Shown here: positions 18,480 to 26,306 of the stretch, piece after piece
Numbering within the stretch: position 1 is the stretch's first letter
Layout: the number at the start of each line of letters is the position of its first letter
Origin: Oceanispirochaeta sp.
GTDB lineage: Bacteria; Spirochaetota; Spirochaetia; DSM-2461
DNA length: 64,000 bases
Assembly (NCBI GenBank): GCA_963663385.2
Contig: CAXXXD010000002.1
Location: forward strand, 992,001-1,056,000
Direction of reading: 5' to 3'
Program-made: the position numbers and the translations under genes
Notes under the pieces: model-generated
Database searches by the model: none
What the model saw: only the letters and a program-made list of their open reading frames with translations
What the model was told of the DNA's origin: nothing

Positions 18480-18573
18480 CTATTTTTTTAAACAGTTTCC
18501 CTATTTTTTGCACACCCCCGGAGGAGAAGGGCATTGTAGGATTTTAACAGGTAATCAAATGGAGGATTTTCCC

Positions 18574-20871
18574 ATGAACGAAAGTGCAGTAATAACGGAT
18601 ATTTCAATAAAAGGCCGCCCTGCGGAAGCGGATGCAAGACTAAAAGCCTTGATTAAAAGGAGTCATTCTCTGGCTATCGGGCATAAAAGGGACCTGTTTG
18701 TGGACAATGCGGAGTTTCTCGTGTATCACTGGAGCGGAGAAGCCGCGGCGTTCAGCCCCAATACGGGGGAGACTGCGGCGGATACGGATACACGGATCCA
18801 TATAGGGGATCACAATGCCCGGGTGGATGCGGGAGGGCCCTTCCCCTATACGAAAGAAATGCCATCCAAATCCGGCAGCTTCGAGTACAGTGAAAAAAAC
18901 TGGGCCGAAGATTATGCCTTTTTCCTGGATCACAGCCCTGCTGAAATCCATCCCAATGAGCGGATTGTCGGGGAGTTTCACTGGATGCTGGAGGAAGCCC
19001 GTTACTTTCAATACCCCGAATCCCAGAGAAAGTTGGGAAAGGCAGCCCGTAAACTGGGGGCCGGGGGCATCAGTTTTACCCATACCTGTCCGGATCTCAG
19101 CATAGGACTGGCACTGGGATGGGGCGGTCTGCTGGATAAAGTAAAGAGGAATCTGAAGAAATTCGAAGAGTATGGAAACGAACGATCCGCGGAGTATCTG
19201 AGGGCTCAAATCCTGGTTGTGGAATCCATTATGCGTTTTATCGAAAAGCATGCCGACCGGGCCGAAGAGCTGGCGGCTGCCGAAAAGGATGCTCTGCAGA
19301 AACAGAACTACCTGTTTGTGGCGGGAAACTCCCGGGCCATTATCTCCGCGGCTCCCTCCACCTACGCCCAGGCTGTTCAGTGGTTGCAGTATTTTACTAC
19401 GGTGGAAAGGATTAACGGACACGGTAACGGTTACGGCCGTCTGGACCAGCTGCTGATCGAGTATTACAGCAGGGATAGGGAAAAGGGGATCCTTGACCGG
19501 ACGGAAGCGGTATCTCTTATTGCCGAATTGTACCTGAAATACGGGGGGAACTACTGGTCCTTTGGCGGCCGAGACATAAACGGAGATGATGCCACCAACG
19601 AGATGAGCTGGATCTGTGTGGAGGCCTACGATATTACAGGGGGATACAATCATCTGGGGCTGATGTGGCACCCGGATATAAACGAAGAGTTTTTTACCTA
19701 CGGCTGTGATGTGGTGGCCCGTCACAACTGCGGTACTCCTACCCTGGTGAATTTTGATGTGCTGAGAGACAGCCAGCTCCGTTCCGGAGTGGATGAAAAG
19801 GATGCCTGGAATATGTCCTACTCGGGGTGTCAGTGGTACTGTGTTGTGGGCAGGGAGTATAACGACCAGGATCTGAACTCTTTCGTTCTGGTTCAGCCCA
19901 TGCAGAGAGCCATGGACAGGGCTGCGGAATCCGGTACGACCGATTTTGAAACTTTCTGGCACTATTACGATGAGGAGGTGGATAAAACGGCGGAAATCCT
20001 GAAAGATTTCAAGAACGAAACCTATCTGTGGCAGCATAAGGTCTGGCCGGAAATGGTTACCAGTCTCTGTATGCACGGTCCTATTGAAAAAGGCCGGGAT
20101 GTAACCGATTCTCAGTCTGTCCCCTATAACTACACCTCTGTTAATGTTCTGGGAGTTCCCAATGTGGTCGATTCCCTTTATGCCTTGAAGAAGCTGGTTT
20201 TTGAACAGAAGAAATACTCCATGCAGGAGGTGATTGATGCGGTCTCCTCTGACTGGGAGGGAAGGGAACTGATGCGTCTGGATTTTCTGAACCAGGATAA
20301 ATTCGGAAATGATCTGGAAGATGTGGACGCCATGTCCGTACGTGTTTCCGAGCATATCAGGGAGGTTCTGGAGAACAAGAGGAATAATAAGGGATTCTGG
20401 TTCAGGCCGAGTCTTTTTCAGTATATGGGACACACCTATGCGGGGGATCTTCTGGGAGCCACACCCGATGGAAGGAAGGCTTCGGAACCCCTGGCACATG
20501 GAAACAATCCCATGCACGGTCGTAATACAGAAGGCATGTCAGCCACCATGAAATCCTTCTGTGCCCTGGATTATACCAGGTATCAGGGCGGATCTTTTCA
20601 GGTGGAACTGCAGCCCTCGTTCTTTTCCGGAACAGACCACAAGGGAAAGCTGGTCAGCGCCTTTTCACGGATTTTCTTTAATATGGGAGGGGTCCAGATA
20701 AACCTGAACACGATTGATCTGGCAAAGCTTACCGATGCGATGGAGCATCCGGAAAAAGAGGAGTATTCCGAGCTGGTTGTCAAAGTTACCGGGTATTCCG
20801 CACACTTTGTCGTTCTGGACAGGCGGTTTCAGGAAGAGTTTATTTCCCGTGTAAACTATTCCTCCCTGTAG
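18574..20871 (+). CDS. Glycyl-radical enzyme (PFL-like family), unknown substrate
   Basis: GRLDQ.L, KFGND, GATPDGR.A..PLA, C-terminal Gly loop LVVKVTGYSAHF, Cys loop YSGCQW; ATG 18574 follows GGAGG. Confidence 0.9.
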   Translation: MNESAVITDISIKGRPAEADARLKALIKRSHSLAIGHKRDLFVDNAEFLVYHWSGEAAAFSPNTGETAADTDTRIHIGDHNARVDAGGPFPYTKEMPSKSGSFEYSEKNWAEDYAFFLDHSPAEIHPNERIVGEFHWMLEEARYFQYPESQRKLGKAARKLGAGGISFTHTCPDLSIGLALGWGGLLDKVKRNLKKFEEYGNERSAEYLRAQILVVESIMRFIEKHADRAEELAAAEKDALQKQNYLFVAGNSRAIISAAPSTYAQAVQWLQYFTTVERINGHGNGYGRLDQLLIEYYSRDREKGILDRTEAVSLIAELYLKYGGNYWSFGGRDINGDDATNEMSWICVEAYDITGGYNHLGLMWHPDINEEFFTYGCDVVARHNCGTPTLVNFDVLRDSQLRSGVDEKDAWNMSYSGCQWYCVVGREYNDQDLNSFVLVQPMQRAMDRAAESGTTDFETFWHYYDEEVDKTAEILKDFKNETYLWQHKVWPEMVTSLCMHGPIEKGRDVTDSQSVPYNYTSVNVLGVPNVVDSLYALKKLVFEQKKYSMQEVIDAVSSDWEGRELMRLDFLNQDKFGNDLEDVDAMSVRVSEHIREVLENKRNNKGFWFRPSLFQYMGHTYAGDLLGATPDGRKASEPLAHGNNPMHGRNTEGMSATMKSFCALDYTRYQGGSFQVELQPSFFSGTDHKGKLVSAFSRIFFNMGGVQINLNTIDLAKLTDAMEHPEKEEYSELVVKVTGYSAHFVVLDRRFQEEFISRVNYSSL

Positions 20872-20875
20872 AACT

Positions 20876-21829
20876 ATGAATCCGCTTGTTTTCGATATTT
20901 ACAAAATGTCAGCCCATGACGGGCCGGGGATGAGAACAGTGATATTTCTGAAAGGCTGCCCCCTCAGATGCCGGTGGTGCCATAATCCGGAGAGCTTCCG
21001 TGCTTCTCCGGAAATCTGGGTCTATCCCGAGAGGTGTATCGGATGCGGCCAGTGCCTGGAGTCCTGCCCGGAAGGTGCTCTGTCATTTGATCAGAAGAAG
21101 CGGCCCCTGTTAAACCGGCAGCTCTGTACAGGCTGCGGCCTGTGCTCGGCTGTCTGTCCGGCAAAAGCCCTGGTTGATATAGGTAAATCCTGCTCAAAGG
21201 ACGAGCTTATGAAAATAATTCTGAGGGAAAAGACCTTTATGGATGAAACGGGCGGGGGCGTTACCTTTTCCGGCGGGGAGGCTCTTCTCTATCCCGGGTT
21301 TCTCAGTGAAATGCTGAAGGCCTGTAAAGAGGTCGGGGTTCATACGGCAGTGGATACCTGCGGGGCGGTTCCCTGGGAGAGCCTGGAAAAGGTTCTCCCT
21401 TTTACGGATCTTTTCCTCTATGATCTGAAAATACTGGATCCGCGGGAGCATAAAAAATATACGGGTCTGGGTAACAGGAGGATCCTGTCCAATCTGGAAA
21501 AGCTGAATCCTGTTCTCAGGCGGGAGAAGAAGACACTCTGGATCCGGACTCCCCTGATCCCGGGAGCTACGGACGGTACGGCTAACATCAGGGGCATTGC
21601 CGAATACATCAAAGCTAAACTGGTTCCTCTGCCTGAAAGGTGGGAACTGTGTGCTTTCAATCCTCTGGGCGAGGAGAAATACAGACGGCTGGATCTGCCA
21701 TGGGAGTATAAGAGGGGGTTCATGCTGGAGCAGAAAGCGGCAGACTCCCTTCTGCATACGGCAGGAGAGGTTTTCAGAGGAGCGGGTGAAGCCGGAATTG
21801 TCCGGCTTACAGGTCTGACTGCCTCCTGA
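20876..21829 (+). CDS. Glycyl-radical enzyme activating protein (radical SAM with 2x[4Fe-4S] ferredoxin insert)
   Basis: HDGPG.RTVIFLKGCPLRC.WCHNPES, CIGCGQC...CP, CTGCGLC...CP, GGVTFSGGEAL. Confidence 0.96.
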   Translation: MNPLVFDIYKMSAHDGPGMRTVIFLKGCPLRCRWCHNPESFRASPEIWVYPERCIGCGQCLESCPEGALSFDQKKRPLLNRQLCTGCGLCSAVCPAKALVDIGKSCSKDELMKIILREKTFMDETGGGVTFSGGEALLYPGFLSEMLKACKEVGVHTAVDTCGAVPWESLEKVLPFTDLFLYDLKILDPREHKKYTGLGNRRILSNLEKLNPVLRREKKTLWIRTPLIPGATDGTANIRGIAEYIKAKLVPLPERWELCAFNPLGEEKYRRLDLPWEYKRGFMLEQKAADSLLHTAGEVFRGAGEAGIVRLTGLTAS

Positions 21830-23465
21830 GGGATTCCTGGTATTCAACAGGAGTTATCCCCATGGCCTTGTGGAAGTTTCTGAAAAAGTAACTCCTGCTG
21901 GTGAAGCCTACGGCAATCCCGACCTGTCCCGCATTCAGGGAACTGGTTTTAAACATATGACAGGCTCTGTCTATACGTGTCCTGTTCAGGTAGAAGGAAA
22001 AGGACTCTCCCGCTTCTTCCCTGAACAGCTTCCCCAGATAGGAAGCACTCATCTGGAACTGCTGGGACAGGGTTTTCAGTGAGAGCGGCGCCGAGTAATT
22101 CTGATCTACATAATTGATCAGTCTGCGGGCAATGCTGCTGTCAGAACGTTGTATCAGTTCTTCAGAAATCGCCAGAGACAATTTCCGCAGCCAGTCTATT
22201 AGATCTTCCGGAGATTTCTGTTTAAACAGCTGTCTATGAAGGTTCGCATATCCTCCGGTTAGACTCTCCTTATCCAGTTCCTCCTTTTTAACAAGCGAGA
22301 GAAGATCGGAAAGAATTTCAATCAAAAACCCGATACAGTACTCCCTGTCTGCTGCAGGGTGGTTGGTATAATCCATGAGCAGTCTGTTAAAAAAGTGACT
22401 GATAAGGGTTGTACTCCCTTCTATAATACCGCATATCAGATCATCTGTTTCAATTTCCCCGAAAGGCGTGTCTTCCCTTACAAAGCGGTCAAGGGATGCC
22501 TTGTCAATTATCCGTACGGGCAGGTAGGTAATCGGTTCAATCTCCAGGCCGTTGAACCAGTCTACAGCTGTTTTAACGGGCAGGGTTCCGTCCTGAACAG
22601 GATCCTGCCAGGTTATGGCATTCAGGCTGCCGTTTCGCAAAAGGGCAATCCCAACGGGTGTGCTCCCGTTGGCAACCCGGATCAGATCGGCTCTGCCATA
22701 CCGCGCCAGAGCATCGTTTATGCCCAACTGGCTTGTATTGTCATCCGCACTGATAATTCCCTTCAGTTTCGTTCCGTGTTTTACAAGCCAGGACAGCACC
22801 ATGTCGCATGTTTTCTGTCTGTTCAGCCCGGCCGAAGCCATTTCAAGCAGCTTCATACCCGGAGCACATTCCGCGAGTTCCGTTATGGCTCCCCATGCCC
22901 TGGCGTAATAGGGGGAGGTCCCCGGCAGGTGGGTAACAATGGCATAGCCGCCTTCATGGTTCATCAAACGGGCAAAGTGCCGGCTCAACTGCCTGGTCTG
23001 TTCCCAGTCATCCGGACCGGTCCAGGAGAGGATGTAGGGAAAACCGTCATCCTCCGGGAGCATATTGCTTGCAATGACAGCTATGCCGGCTTCATAGAGT
23101 CGTCTGTACAGGTAGGAACTGTCTTCATTGCTTTCCGGCATCAGTATAACAATGTCAGGCTTATCTTCGATAATGGCTTCAACCTGCTGATCCTGGAGTT
23201 CCGGATCCCACCCGGCATTGTAGATACTCAGCACCATTCCCTTTTTTAATGCCGCCTCACGGAGTCCCCGTATATATTCTCTCTGATAGGGGTGATCTCC
23301 CGCCAGCAGGGCAGCTATCCGTTTCCCCTCCGGTCCTGTTTCAGGGGGAGGCGGCTGCCTTTTTTTTCCGATATGCCAACCGGCATATTCCTTGTCATAC
23401 CAGTGTTCAGGCCTGGTTTTCGGGTATTCAGTCGGTTCTTCCGGACGGGGAGGGATGAATTTCAT
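21807..23465 (-). CDS. Fusion regulator: sugar-binding (RbsB-like) domain + AraC HTH (paralog 1)
   Basis: N-terminal HWYDKEYAGW, WTGPDDW; C-terminal LSLKTLS...SASYLGKLFREE.G..F, VGF....YF...F.K..G.TP; no signal peptide or TM helix. Confidence 0.85.
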   Translation of the reverse strand: MKFIPPRPEEPTEYPKTRPEHWYDKEYAGWHIGKKRQPPPPETGPEGKRIAALLAGDHPYQREYIRGLREAALKKGMVLSIYNAGWDPELQDQQVEAIIEDKPDIVILMPESNEDSSYLYRRLYEAGIAVIASNMLPEDDGFPYILSWTGPDDWEQTRQLSRHFARLMNHEGGYAIVTHLPGTSPYYARAWGAITELAECAPGMKLLEMASAGLNRQKTCDMVLSWLVKHGTKLKGIISADDNTSQLGINDALARYGRADLIRVANGSTPVGIALLRNGSLNAITWQDPVQDGTLPVKTAVDWFNGLEIEPITYLPVRIIDKASLDRFVREDTPFGEIETDDLICGIIEGSTTLISHFFNRLLMDYTNHPAADREYCIGFLIEILSDLLSLVKKEELDKESLTGGYANLHRQLFKQKSPEDLIDWLRKLSLAISEELIQRSDSSIARRLINYVDQNYSAPLSLKTLSQQFQMSASYLGKLFREEAGESFSFYLNRTRIDRACHMFKTSSLNAGQVGIAVGFTSRSYFFRNFHKAMGITPVEYQESLRRQSDL

Positions 23466-23540
23466 GAAAGAAGTTTAGAGAGTGACCGCCCTTTTTGTCA
23501 AACAGCTTTTTTCAACTCCGGGAGCAGGGAGGAATAATAA

Positions 23541-23568
23541 TTGACAAATGGTAAAATTGTGATAAAAT
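23541..23568 (+). promoter_or_regulatory. Host sigma70 promoter, originally for the UroD-like gene and now upstream of the IS110
   Basis: TTGACA-16 nt-TAAAAT with extended TG. Confidence 0.6.
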
Positions 23569-23674
23569 ATAGGTAAAATAAAAACAAAATTTTATCACAG
23601 TTTGTACGAAATGCTCACGGCCTGGTTATGCAAGCGGGCTTGAGAGTTTTTACAGGAGGAATGATAAAAAGTCT

Positions 23675-23870
23675 TCATAGGCTTGTGGATTGATACAATG
23701 TTCTAAACATCGTTTAGAACAGCCAGGTTACTGTTCGCCATTTTTACTGGTCTCCGAGACCGTACAGGAGAATGAAGAGCCGTGACCGAAACATTCAATG
23801 GTCTTCGAGACCGGATAGGAGAATGGAATCAATTCACCGTACAGGCGCTGTTTTAGGCAATAGGAGCGAA
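23675..23870 (+). ncRNA. Candidate IS110 bridge RNA (target-binding loop ~23741-23770, donor-binding loop ~23792-23821); ends approximate
   Basis: 5' hairpin TGTTCTAAAC-atc-GTTTAGAACA, then two modules 51 nt apart of the form [8-nt guide]-GGTCT(C/T)CGAGACC-G-[8-nt guide]-AATG. Their guides match the reconstructed target and donor junctions. Confidence 0.75.
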
Positions 23871-23873
23871 GGT

Positions 23874-24986
23874 ATGAAGATGAGTATCGGAGTGGATCTG
23901 CACAAATCCCAGTTAACAGTCTGTTTCCTGAGTGATGATAGAAGCATTTGTGAATCAGGAATGTATCCGACCTCTGAGGACGGTTACAGAGCATTTCTTG
24001 AGAAAGCAGTGTCCTATACAGAAGAGGGCCTTGATGTTAGGGCTGCAGTGGAATCAACAGGAAATGCCCGGTTCTTCCGTAACAAGCTATTGCTAGCAGG
24101 GATTGAGGTGGTGGTTGTGAATACACTGAAATTCAAAGTTGTAAATGAATCAGTGAAAAAGACGGATAAGCATGATGCCAGAACTCTAGCAGAGTTCTTG
24201 GAAAAAGATATGCTTCCCGAATCACAGCTTTGTTCTCAGGAGAGTGAGGATATCCGTAGAGTTCTTAAATCCAGAACTATCCTTGTTAAATCAGTCGTAT
24301 CTTTGAAGAATCAGGTTCACGGACTGCTTCTAGGGTATGGAATTGAAACAAAAAGAGCTGCGCTGCAGAGTAAAAAAGAAAGGCAGCGCATCCTCATCGG
24401 TCTCGTGGACCATAGGAGTTTCGGAAGCGCTGCCAAAGCGATAGAACCGCTGCTTTCTACGATAGATCAGGTTTCGAACCAGGTCAAGCAGTTAGAGAAA
24501 GTCCTGCTGGAACTTGTAAAGGAAGATGAGGATGTACAGTTATTGCAGACGATCCCGGGAGTCGGATTGATAACGGCATCGACTATTAGGGCCTATACGG
24601 ATGATATCAAGCGGTACGCCAGTGCCAAGAAGTATTCGGCTTATGCCGGTCTTGTACCATGGGTGCAGAACTCCAATGAGACGATTCATCATGGGCATAT
24701 AACAAAGAGAGGGGCTGTAGAACTGAGAACGGCATTTGTTCAGTGTGTTATGGGAATGGTTAGAACTCGGAAAACGACTGGCAATTACCGTATCATGACG
24801 AAGTACAGAGCGATGAAGAAGAACAAGGGCAGCGGCACGAGTATTATCGCCTCTGCAAGAAAGATGAGTACGGTAGTGTACTCCATATTGAAAACCCGTG
24901 AACCCTTTGATCCGTTGAAGATGGTTCCGGATGATAAGTACTTGAAGATGCAGGCGGCTGCATTCAATGCCGTAAAAACTGGGTAA
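23874..24986 (+). CDS. IS110-family transposase/recombinase (DEDD RuvC-like + Tnp domain)
   Basis: SIGVDLHK (D), AVESTG (E), KTDKHDA (DD), LQTIPGVG, YAGLVP..QNS......G.ITKRG; ATG 23874 follows AGGAG. Confidence 0.95.
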   Translation: MKMSIGVDLHKSQLTVCFLSDDRSICESGMYPTSEDGYRAFLEKAVSYTEEGLDVRAAVESTGNARFFRNKLLLAGIEVVVVNTLKFKVVNESVKKTDKHDARTLAEFLEKDMLPESQLCSQESEDIRRVLKSRTILVKSVVSLKNQVHGLLLGYGIETKRAALQSKKERQRILIGLVDHRSFGSAAKAIEPLLSTIDQVSNQVKQLEKVLLELVKEDEDVQLLQTIPGVGLITASTIRAYTDDIKRYASAKKYSAYAGLVPWVQNSNETIHHGHITKRGAVELRTAFVQCVMGMVRTRKTTGNYRIMTKYRAMKKNKGSGTSIIASARKMSTVVYSILKTREPFDPLKMVPDDKYLKMQAAAFNAVKTG

Positions 24987-25046
24987 TCCGGTTCAATTGT
25001 AAGCTTGTTAATAGGCTTATGATTGACTTTTTATAGGAGTAAAAAA

Positions 25047-26306
25047 ATGACTTCAAGAGAAAGAGTTCTGGCCTCTGTCAACCACAGGTCTCCCGATCGG
25101 GTTCCCATTGACCTCGGCGCTACTCCCAGTTCCGGGATATCGGCGGTGGCCCATAACAATCTGATTAAACATCTGGGCTGGGCGGATTCTCCCACCCGGA
25201 TCTACGATGTGGTGCAGCAGCTTGCCCAGCCTGATGAAAAGCTGATAGAGCTTCTGGGGGTGGATATTCTGGATATTGGCCGGACCTTCAATACGTCTCC
25301 CGAAGACTGGTATGAGATAGATCTTCAGAATGGGGGTAAAGCGCAGTACCCGGTCTGGTTTCGTCCTGTCAAAAATGAAAAAACCGGAGAGTGGGAGGCT
25401 TTTCACCGGACCAGCGGGCGAAAGATTGCGTCCATGCCCGACAGCGCCACCTTCTATGATCAGTCATACTTCCCCTGGGTGAACGGATACCCGGACAGCC
25501 GGCAGGGGATGGAAGATGCTCTGGATGAGGCAATGGACCATATCCTCTGGTCCCATCTTGTGCACAGTCCCTGGGACCATGCGGGAGATGCGGGTTTTTT
25601 TGATACCCTCAGAAGCAACACCCTTGCCCTGCGGAAATCCAGCGATAAAGCCCTGATGGTTGTAAACGGGTGCAACCTTTTTGAATGGGGCACCTTTCTC
25701 CGCCGTATGGATAACTTTCTGATGGACCTCTATGTGGAACAGGATAAAGTAGCCATGCTGATGGAGCTGCTCATGGAACGGCATATGAAGGGCCTTGCCA
25801 AAACCTGCGAAGCCGTGGGGGATACGGTTGATATTTTGCGTTTCGGTGATGATCTGGGTATGGATTCGGGGCCTTTTATGGGACTGGAAGTGTACCGGGA
25901 CCTTTTTCATGAACACCGTAAGACTCTCTGTTCCCATGTGCATCAGAACAGCAGCATGAAAACCTTTCTCCATACCTGCGGGTCCATGCATCAGTATATA
26001 CCCAGCCTGATAGAGGAGGGAATGGATATTATCAATCCCGTTCAGACCAACTGCCGGGATATGGAGGCGGATAAACTGAAAGAGGAATTCGGGAAGGATA
26101 TCGTTTTCTGGGGCGGCGGAATGGATCCCCGGGTAATTCTGAATACGGGAACCCCGGAACAGGTCCGGGAAGAGGTCCGGAAGCGTCTGGACGTATTTAC
26201 TCCCGGGGGCGGATATGTTTTCAACAATATTCATAATATTATGCCCGATGTGCCGCCGGAAAATATCCTGGCCATGTTTGAGGAAGTTCAGAAATATCAG
26301 CTGTAG
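25047..26306 (+). CDS. Uroporphyrinogen decarboxylase (URO-D)-fold protein, MtaA/CmuA-like putative methyltransferase
   Basis: MTSRERV.....H..PDRVPID, GDDLG, FLHTCG, NPVQ, FWGGG, GGGYVF...HNI.PDVPPENI. Confidence 0.85.
   Translation: MTSRERVLASVNHRSPDRVPIDLGATPSSGISAVAHNNLIKHLGWADSPTRIYDVVQQLAQPDEKLIELLGVDILDIGRTFNTSPEDWYEIDLQNGGKAQYPVWFRPVKNEKTGEWEAFHRTSGRKIASMPDSATFYDQSYFPWVNGYPDSRQGMEDALDEAMDHILWSHLVHSPWDHAGDAGFFDTLRSNTLALRKSSDKALMVVNGCNLFEWGTFLRRMDNFLMDLYVEQDKVAMLMELLMERHMKGLAKTCEAVGDTVDILRFGDDLGMDSGPFMGLEVYRDLFHEHRKTLCSHVHQNSSMKTFLHTCGSMHQYIPSLIEEGMDIINPVQTNCRDMEADKLKEEFGKDIVFWGGGMDPRVILNTGTPEQVREEVRKRLDVFTPGGGYVFNNIHNIMPDVPPENILAMFEEVQKYQL

Follow-up and report, generated by a model that had tools for sequence, protein, structure and literature searches.

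The DNA analysed here, a 64,000-nucleotide stretch of an Oceanispirochaeta contig (CAXXXD010000002.1) that we call the window and in whose coordinates positions are given, contains a gene for a URO-D-like protein whose Shine-Dalgarno sequence (SD) is split by an insertion sequence (IS). AGGAG is present at both junctions, 23654-23658 and 25035-25039, and the element-specific DNA between the two measures 1,376 bp, or 1,381 bp (23659-25039) if one AGGAG is counted with it. The left junction reads ...GAGAGTTTTTAC-AGGAG-GAATGATAAAAAG... and the right ...GATTGACTTTTTAT-AGGAG-TAAAAAA-ATG (also TTTTTATAGGAG-TAAAAAA-ATG), the ATG at 25047 being that of the URO-D-like gene. We consider, with a probability of about 0.85, that this is an active insertion sequence of the IS110 family, which relies on a bridge RNA and a recombinase of the DEDD type and attaches at the Shine-Dalgarno sequence itself.

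The element belongs to the IS110 family. Its single long open reading frame (ORF) encodes a recombinase that matches the Pfam domains DEDD_Tnp_IS110 (PF01548; residues 5-155, E 9e-21) and Transposase_20 (PF02371; residues 222-302, E 5e-19), and scores 228 bits, against a cut-off of 140, with the NCBIfam equivalog NF033542, 'IS110 family RNA-guided transposase'. The closest solved structure is that of the IS621 transposase (8wt6, E 9e-16), the significant match being to the C-terminal domain; a serine of the recombinase aligns with that of the YESGS stretch in chain 8wt6_A, and may correspond to the conserved catalytic serine of the Tnp domain (S241). The reading of this locus in the initial annotation, as an IS110 element lodged inside an SD, is borne out by these matches together with the AGGAG at both junctions, and the coordinates it gave, 23657-25039, were correct to within 2 nt.

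The URO-D-like protein shows weak, sub-threshold NCBIfam matches to MtaA/CmuA-type methyltransferases, and may be a methyltransferase instead of a decarboxylase. Eight same-genus relatives have the orthologous locus without the element. The features of the locus are collected in Table 1.

Table 1. Features of the element and its surroundings, in window coordinates.
Feature	Position	Strand	Remarks
AraC-type regulator gene with periplasmic-binding domain, divergent	21807-23465	-	upstream of URO-D-like gene; Pfam
Putative host sigma-70-like promoter of URO-D-like gene, facing the element	23541..23568	+	TTGACA-16-TAAAAT plus TG, 11/12
Left-target positions -2 and -1 (AC)	23652..23653	+	sole flank positions tracking the target guide
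Left AGGAG: host SD, now left junction	23654..23658	+	at 10/10 left junctions; last AG (23657-23658) is the putative crossover core
Element-specific DNA	23659..25034	+	common to 10 genomic copies with 0-1 mismatches; empty contig skips 1,381 bp
Right-donor bases GAATG, read by loop 2 5' side	23659..23663	+	compensatory pairs in relatives
10-codon ORF MIKSLHRLVD	23661..23693	+	ATG 2 nt after AGGAG
-10-like box (with TG) of putative split promoter, TGATAAAAA	23662..23670	+	complete only in circular form; read from sequence
Left arm of perfect 10-bp subterminal inverted repeat, ATAAAAAGTC	23664..23673		100% complementary to 25025-25034
Bridge-RNA core, two homologous loop modules within basal stem	23685..23837	+	covariation in 25 relatives
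Loop 1 5' side UUUUUACU, putative right-target guide	23741..23748	+	complement of core AG+TAAAAA at this site
Loop 1 3' side UACAGGAG, left-target guide	23763..23770	+	identical to 23651-23658 (left flank + AGGAG)
Loop 2 5' side CAUUC, right-donor guide	23792..23796	+	complementary to 23659-23663
Loop 2 3' side AUAGGAG, left-donor guide	23815..23821	+	identical to 25033-25039 (right end + AGGAG)
IS110-family recombinase gene, 370 aa	23874..24986	+	single long ORF inside element; own AGGAG at 23862-23866
Right-end hairpin, terminator-like	24993..25034	+	15 bp (24993-25026), then CUUUUUAU; contains TTGACT and inverted-repeat right arm
Right arm of subterminal inverted repeat, GACTTTTTAT	25025..25034		both arms conserved across clade
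Right AGGAG: rebuilt SD of downstream gene	25035..25039	+	at 10/10 right junctions, ATG 6-8 nt on
URO-D-like gene, its SD the target	25047..26306	+	419 aa; PF01208, E 1e-19

Occupied sites in this genome and its relatives

The genome (4 contigs, 5.3 Mb) carries ten copies of the element, which differ from the one in the window at no position (eight copies) or at a single position of the 1,376 nt (two copies); neither solo ends nor partial copies were found elsewhere in it at up to 3 mismatches. All ten have AGGAG on both flanks and their recombinase gene in the same direction as the gene that follows. Five copies have 6 nt between the right AGGAG and the ATG, three have 7 nt and two have 8 nt, and the ORFs opened by these ATGs are 98-689 aa long. 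The nine downstream proteins other than that of the window all belong to Pfam families (DUF6588, Zn-ADH, ACP subunit, GNAT, MCP, H+-PPase, alpha/beta hydrolase, Gfo/Idh/MocA and GDPD). At four sites a long same-strand open frame stops 3-308 nt upstream of the insertion, so leaders and intercistronic SDs are both used. Directly 5' of the left AGGAG, six copies have the bases TAC, and the other four have AAC, CAC, GGC and AAA; position -1 is thus C, and position -2 A, in nine copies of the ten.

As a measure of how often such motifs mark gene starts, free AGGAG sites on both strands were scored as gene-start-like if a start codon 4-10 nt downstream opened at least 80 aa, a crude test made with no gene caller. 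The gene-start-like share was 9.9% for AGGAG (1,514 of 15,321), 11% for ACAGGAG (161 of 1,454) and 9.7% for TACAGGAG (34 of 349), and went up to just 19-22% when an all-A/T right flank was required. Insertion at gene starts in 10 copies out of 10 is far more than chance would give at comparable AGGAG sites.

The same placement is seen elsewhere. A same-genus relative (G009) has a full copy, 75% identical, at AGGAG-N6-ATG, and two further relatives have fragments of element ends at AGGAG or AAGGAG, followed by ATG. The chromosome of one Spirochaetia metagenome-assembled genome (MAG) contains 15 copies, with 79% amino acid identity, every one of which reads AGGAG-element-AGGAG-N5-7-ATG; spacing is 6 nt in 12 of them, and 5-8 nt in all 25 copies of the two genomes. 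A protein-guided scan of species-representative genomes yielded 76 loci, in 50 of which the right end could be found by pattern and in 43 of which the flank was readable. In an automatic test, 36 of these 43 showed an ATG that opened an ORF at a distance of 3-12 nt; GTG and TTG starts were allowed but never picked. The seven misses were L052, L058, L063, L064, L084, L085 and L090; by eye, L052, L058, L063 and L084 have a nearby ATG that fails the ORF-length test, and in L064 the ATG lies beyond the spacing window. The ends are near-invariant (left AGGAG-G(A/C)A(T/C)GATAAAAA, right TTGACTTTTTAT-AGGAG) even where the recombinases are only 51-60% identical. SD targeting is common to the whole clade. 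The initial annotation had proposed that insertion into SDs or 5' untranslated regions is recurrent, and had asked that flanks be tabulated across the genome: the tabulation agrees, no copy here lying away from a ribosome-binding site (10/10 at AGGAG-N6-8-ATG), with 15/15 in the MAG and 36/43 right flanks in the clade.

Relatives 71-76% identical are found on long contigs (106-602 kb) labelled Desulfobacterales or delta proteobacterium; other labels (Gracilibacteria, WWE3, Dehalococcoidales, Dysgonamonadaceae) occur on short contigs only and may reflect binning errors. A Lentisphaeria group, 33% identical, does not show ends of the clade type. Two loci stand out in their right flanks: L063 has two tandem right ends (about 1790-1850), ...GACTTTTTATAGGAG occurring twice, ~30 nt apart, and in L090 the right AGGAG is followed immediately by ATGAAGATT, similar to the beginning of a further IS110 recombinase gene. 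Both arrangements suggest insertion into an SD that was rebuilt by, or borne on, an element.

An empty allele was found when four contig sets from sequencing runs were compared with 23300-25500. In run X9, from another strain and a separate study, a 343-nt contig joins 23444-23646 to 25028-25167, skipping exactly 1,381 bp; six letters at the joint (TTTTTA) fit either side, and the right piece has no mismatch. Loose contig ends in other strains place the element at other sites, and it is therefore mobile within the species. Metagenome contigs, searched with 23 nt of the left flank, contained no exact match. The orthologous loci of the eight same-genus relatives were set aside as exact empty alleles, being only 65-73% identical, though their SD and start are uninterrupted.

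The bridge RNA and its guides

The 5' non-coding end of the element (215 nt) holds a 32-nt direct repeat, 84% identical, whose two copies correspond to two loop modules. In the consensus structure drawn from 25 aligned left ends the basal stem pairs 23685-90 with 23832-37, the outer stem of module 1 pairs 23726-36 with 23777-87, there are two closing pairs, C-G and A-U, and two inner hairpins are formed by 23748-62 and 23799-813. The 30 consensus pairs amount to 749 cells of the alignment, of which 96.4% are paired, and compensatory changes occur in 11 of these pairs (58 cells); none of 500 shuffles reached these values for pairing and covariation, and sliding the partners by 1-3 columns reduces pairing to 19-39%. 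Folding of the core as a single sequence gives z = -3.4. A longer closing stem, CAUU with AAUG, was dropped, as the alignment supports the C-G and A-U pairs only. The inner hairpins with the adjoining guides (23748-23820) are also 77-78% complementary over 22-23 nt to 24391-24413 in the recombinase ORF, a match that may be due to chance or to an RNA-RNA contact.

Loop 1 has UUUUUAC(U) on its 5' side and UACAGGAGAA on its 3' side; loop 2 has (CA)UUCAA and GAUAGGAGAA. The 3' side of loop 1 follows the left flank of the site in which each element sits. In a set of 23 elements, each compared at the site it occupies, guide and flank carry the same base in 22 at position -1, 19 at -2, 8 at -3 and 5 at -4, where shuffling guides among the elements gives means of 12.5, 9.0, 5.8 and 5.1; none of 20,000 shuffles reached the matches at -1 and -2, while those at -3 and -4 are not significant. 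L064 and L085, whose left junctions differ, were omitted; independence is somewhat overstated, since kin share guides, although their flanks are different. As only -1 and -2 track the guide, the variable stretch of target that can be read appears to consist of two bases added to a constant AGGAG. By analogy with loop 2, the 5' side of loop 1 would read the right side of the target: UUUUUACU pairs well, counting G-U, where the right flank begins with T (four sites), and poorly at the other six.

Loop 2 corresponds to the ends of the element. AUAGGAG is present both in loop 2 and at the right end of 24 of the 25 aligned elements, the exception being L090 with AUAAGGAG. On the other side the guide changes with the left end that it faces, GCACG going with CGUGC in L059 and L063 and GCATG with CAUGC in L061 and L085; the fit is less good in L087 and L104. 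The AGGAG-containing guide that the initial annotation had supposed to steer insertion is thus present, in fact twice, once in each loop.

Both guides of loop 1 cover the final AG of AGGAG, on which they overlap, and in the relative L085 the left junction is AGAG and the right AGGAG, matching the guide GGUUGAGAG, such that only AG is shared. For these two reasons we place the crossover core, of 2 nt, at the AG of 23657-58 and 25038-39. The earlier proposal that the right end supplies TATAGG agrees with this putative core and with the rebuilding of the downstream SD and its spacing. AGGAG was rejected as a 5-bp target duplication, AGG belonging to the conserved right end and to the donor guide, and L085 sharing only AG. 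Two further candidates for guide copies were rejected: CCGUACAGG (23836-23845), which in G009 does not follow the target guide (UAUAGG vs UUC), and AAUAGGAG (23860-23866), which is the recombinase's own SD. With this last (23860-23876: AT-AGGAG, with ATG 7 nt later) the element carries within itself a version of its own target that resembles the donor arm; in this genome we saw no copy nested there.

The mechanism that we propose is as follows. Loop 1 would read the target, its U-rich 5' side pairing loosely with AG and the A-rich spacer behind the SD; loop 2 would read the joined ends of the element, AUAGGAG representing the right end plus AGGAG and CAUUC pairing with the first five bases of the left end. 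Crossover would occur at the last AG of AGGAG. Because target and donor share the AGG that precedes the core, the left junction would keep the host AGGAG and the right acquire the element's AGG, and the downstream gene would retain AGGAG at unchanged spacing. The target being asymmetric, every copy would be sense-oriented within a transcribed leader or intercistronic gap. Host transcription could then read into the bridge RNA and the recombinase gene, while the element's own promoter, made up of TTGACT at the right end and TGATAAAAA at the left, would be whole only in the excised circle.

The empty allele of run X9 differs from what the guide leads one to expect by one base: it reads ...GAGAGTTTTTA-T-AGGAGTAAAAAAATG (TTTTTA-T-AGGAG), with T and not C at -1. 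The initial annotation had named an empty allele with a junction other than the one it predicted as grounds against its reading; the SD and its spacing are as it predicted, the base before AGGAG is not, and to the letter the junction does differ, although the model of the target is unaffected. We favour strain polymorphism; -1 is the most discriminating position of the guide, so that C makes a perfect and T a mismatched target. Possibly, instead, T is ancestral, the site matching the donor arm (TTTTTAT-AGGAG) and the junction having changed after insertion.

In the Spirochaetia MAG (OY776510.1) several insertion sites, judged from the left flanks of L039, L040, L045, L046 and L053, fall within a recurring intergenic sequence, made up of a short hairpin and then ACTTTTTAT-AGGAG, that imitates the right end of the element itself. 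The base at -2 agrees with the donor guide (A), not the target guide (U), in 10 of the 15 MAG left flanks. Such sites may be relics of right ends or donor-arm ('half-match') sites.

Possible transcription across the junctions, and the choice of site

The promoter claimed earlier at 23541-23568 is real as a consensus match (11 of 12 positions, with an upstream TG). It lies ~90 nt upstream of the insertion and is the best site within 23200-25300, and a similar promoter stands 5' of the orthologue in the relative G007. Between it and the bridge-RNA core we found a single weak terminator-like site (23717-23736), in the left end of the element. Judged by geometry, read-through from the host promoter into the element is plausible. 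The joined ends would give TTGACT (25023-25028), a 17-nt spacer and TAAAAA with an upstream TG, a sigma-70-like arrangement that is split when the element is integrated; at the integrated left junction no complete promoter was scored. This putative junction promoter would be whole in the excised circle. In the joined form the arms of the subterminal inverted repeat would flank AGGAGGAATG.

At the right end, the terminator-like hairpin (fold -17.6 kcal/mol, z = -3.3) may end transcription at the edge of the element, which would be sensible for the circle but polar on the host gene, and the intact SD is accordingly no proof that the downstream gene is expressed. At this site, in addition, the right-end U-run can pair with the A-run of the spacer (25029-25046, UUUUUAU/GUAAAAA), with AGGA in a 4-nt loop, and this pairing could mask the rebuilt SD in read-through RNA.

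The hairpin lends weight to another reading of the locus, that rebuilding of the SD is a by-product of loop duplication, both loops carrying AGGAG, without sparing the host gene, and that the element, by ending transcription, silences dispensable downstream genes, to which we give somewhat less than an even chance. The 15-bp stem stands directly before CUUUUUAU (24993-25034), the loops are indeed the two copies of the 84%-identical repeat, the ten target genes look accessory, and a promoter scan of the locus found no outward promoter at the right end. But just 3 of the 15 pairs are G-C, and although relatives keep the inner hairpin, with some covariation, and it abuts the U-run in L049 and L068, in others it stops 4-10 nt short of it, unlike a canonical terminator. 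Moreover the AUAGGAG right end is kept, in the 24 of 25 elements already mentioned, where recombinase identity to that of the window is as low as 37-60%: this fits selection on the rebuilt SD, but fits selection on donor recognition too.

The guides explain the motif and the orientation of insertion; why copies are confined to real gene starts does not follow from them in any obvious way, and selection against disruption is the obvious alternative. In that account the guide reads NN-AGGAG with an A/T-rich right side and the bias towards gene starts arises later, by purifying selection against copies that disrupt ORFs. Between 72 and 86% of the sites in each class lie inside long ORFs (~84% for AGGAG), where insertion would destroy a gene; only two flank positions covary with the guide, and the right flanks have no strong position-specific match; and a case for selection as a force behind intergenic IS distributions is made in Plague 2010 (PMC2942039). 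We nevertheless regard this account as doubtful, though a serious contender. The copies are nearly identical, hence recent, yet all ten here and all 15 in the MAG are at gene starts. Even outside long ORFs only ~30-50% of candidate sites are gene-start-like. Four of the ten occupied sites have an imperfect left flank, whereas 19 free sites with the ideal sequence TACAGGAGTA, out of 24, are inside long ORFs and unoccupied. Every scored start is ATG, against 77% (1,091 of 1,413, a crude count) at gene-start-like AGGAG sites of this genome, and the spacing of 6 nt found in 12 of the 15 MAG copies compares with 26% at such sites, 75% of which have 5-8 nt.

A stronger proposition is that this widespread, cross-phylum clade, with AGGAG fixed in both loops, has the translation-initiation region as its universal landing site and recognises real gene starts by something beyond the 7-8 nt of its left guide; we think it unlikely on present evidence. 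The right-hand guide could read the spacer and the ATG, a route suggested by the CAU that is invariant at the 5' edge of loop 1, by the ATG at all scored starts and by the narrow spacing. The C and A of this CAU are paired within the RNA in the consensus, and the register that pairs the core predicts a spacing of 5 nt, where 6 nt is the one most often observed. A second possible route is a coupling of insertion to leaders that are open and being transcribed. If the proposition were true, the mirrored order of the guides would represent a distinct bridge-RNA architecture, producing sense-oriented, SD-restoring insertions in the orientation opposite to that of IS900.

A crossover to the left of the C/T position, making the element 23653-25033 with a CAGGAG of its own and leaving the host TAGGAG at the right junction, predicts the TTTTTA-T-AGGAG of the X9 empty allele exactly, but is highly improbable, because the bases 5' of AGGAG vary among copies of the same element and so derive from the target, share no constant dinucleotide there and covary with the loop-1 guide, while L085 shares only AG.

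Several observations weigh against an active, bridge RNA-guided element attached at the SD. An Rfam scan of 23000-25500 in E-value mode returned no relevant family. The order of guides within the loops is the reverse of that in IS621, the mechanism of which is thus transferred here by analogy. At -1 the empty allele carries T, not the C expected under the model; the right flanks, though A/T-rich, fit the putative right-target guide no more than loosely; a guide match of 7-8 nt does not by itself account for every copy being at a real gene start; and the -10-like box, TAAAAA, lacks the usual final T.

The 10-codon frame MIKSLHRLVD, put forward earlier as a new peptide behind the host SD, exists from 23661, but is not conserved and has only 2 nt between AGGAG and ATG. 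In 25 aligned relatives it runs for 4-23 codons with frame shifts, one row giving no reading, and in 3 of the 24 rows read it starts with ACG, CTG or GTG instead of ATG. It is probably not a functional peptide, its conserved bases being better explained by the guide-read GAATG, the -10-like box and the inverted-repeat arm.

Upstream of the URO-D-like gene, beyond the divergent AraC-type regulator gene, the neighbourhood (18508-23465) includes genes for a PFL-like glycyl-radical enzyme (787 aa) and a radical-SAM activase (317 aa). A perfect 11-nt inverted repeat, TGTGATAAAAT (23558-68, over the -10 box) and ATTTTATCACA (23589-99), its arms 20 nt apart, looks like an operator for the URO-D-like gene promoter, beside the divergent regulator gene.

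Comparison with known systems

RNA-guided IS110 elements have been in the published record since 2024. A search that took in few subscription journals and no supplements turned up no published account of a bridge RNA whose two loops both contain AGGAG, of SD rebuilding by a cross-phylum clade or of the mirrored layout. The SD stands before most bacterial genes. An element that targets it would carry a portable landing site, and this fits its presence on long Spirochaetia and Desulfobacterota contigs; insertion in the sense direction only would place the element under host promoters while rebuilding the SD that it splits. In the present case a whole clade has the SD motif fixed in both loops of the bridge RNA.

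The nearest precedent in terms of target is provided by IS900 and IS901 of Mycobacterium avium, IS110-family elements that insert between SD and start codon, as stated in a passage of Plague 2010 (PMC2942039). Ours resembles them, on the strength of the target motif, in that its ten copies all lie within AGGAG, 6-8 nt before ATG. Doran 1997 and Inglis 2003 are reportedly the papers cited for the IS900/IS901 placement. Part of Conde 2021 (PMC8141618) gives the IS900 motif as CATGNNNNNNTCTCCTT and mentions an antisense ORF, hed, that spans the element and relies on start signals of the host. This motif is the reverse complement of AAGGAGA-N6-CATG and, being written in the orientation of the element, implies an IS900 transposase antisense to the target gene; in all ten copies here the recombinase is sense to it. 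The longest antisense ORFs of our element, of 88 and 60 aa, are likewise unlike hed. We found no bridge-RNA reading of IS900 targeting in the literature searched, and the guides described above would offer an explanation, at the level of the guide, for the known landing of some IS110-family elements between SD and start codon.

Within the family the element combines characters. According to part of Siddiquee 2024 (PMC11187229), the IS1111 group has a seekRNA downstream of the transposase and subterminal inverted repeats, and the IS110 type lacks the repeats. Like the former, our element has an RNA-guided DEDD transposase and a subterminal inverted repeat, of 10 bp; unlike it, the RNA is upstream of the recombinase gene, as in the IS110 type, from whose description the perfect repeat in turn departs.

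A section of the Xie 2026 preprint (10.64898/2026.08.31.748434) deals with half-match recombination by IS621, which uses sites that match the donor arm. The empty allele TTTTTAT-AGGAG and the ten MAG flanks resemble such sites, fitting the donor guide (AU) better at -2, and by this analogy half-match recombination is a possible origin of both the T allele and the MAG flanks.

The fullest comparison is with IS621, whose bridge-RNA logic, with guides that overlap on the core, is set out in portions of Durrant 2024 (PMC11208160) and Hiraizumi 2024 (PMC11208158); a promoter formed across the joined ends of IS110 elements is also described in part of the former. The two systems have in common a recombinase with DEDD and Tnp domains, a non-coding RNA 5' of its gene with two internal loops, for target and for joined ends, guides that covary with the DNA, and, as far as the layout here can be read, recognition by each loop of both strands around a 2-nt core and a promoter split between the ends. 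They differ in that our recombinase matches that of IS621 significantly over its C-terminal domain only, that the target is an SD and not a repetitive extragenic palindromic (REP) element, and that the putative core is AG on the strand of the recombinase gene and CT on the opposite one, while in IS621 the CT is on the RNA's own strand. The guide order within the loops is also reversed: in both loops here the long left guide occupies the 3' side and the short right guide the 5' side. Such a variant layout is not unexpected, many bridge RNAs deviating from the IS621 structure according to part of a 2026 preprint (10.64898/2026.10.21.760802). The gap between the sequence that the guides can read and the sites actually used poses a testable question on how bridge recombinases choose their sites; and for genome engineering the element would be a natural case of a bridge RNA whose loops are mirrored, whose right guide is relaxed and in which, in contrast to IS621, the programmable part seems to come down to two target positions (2 nt).

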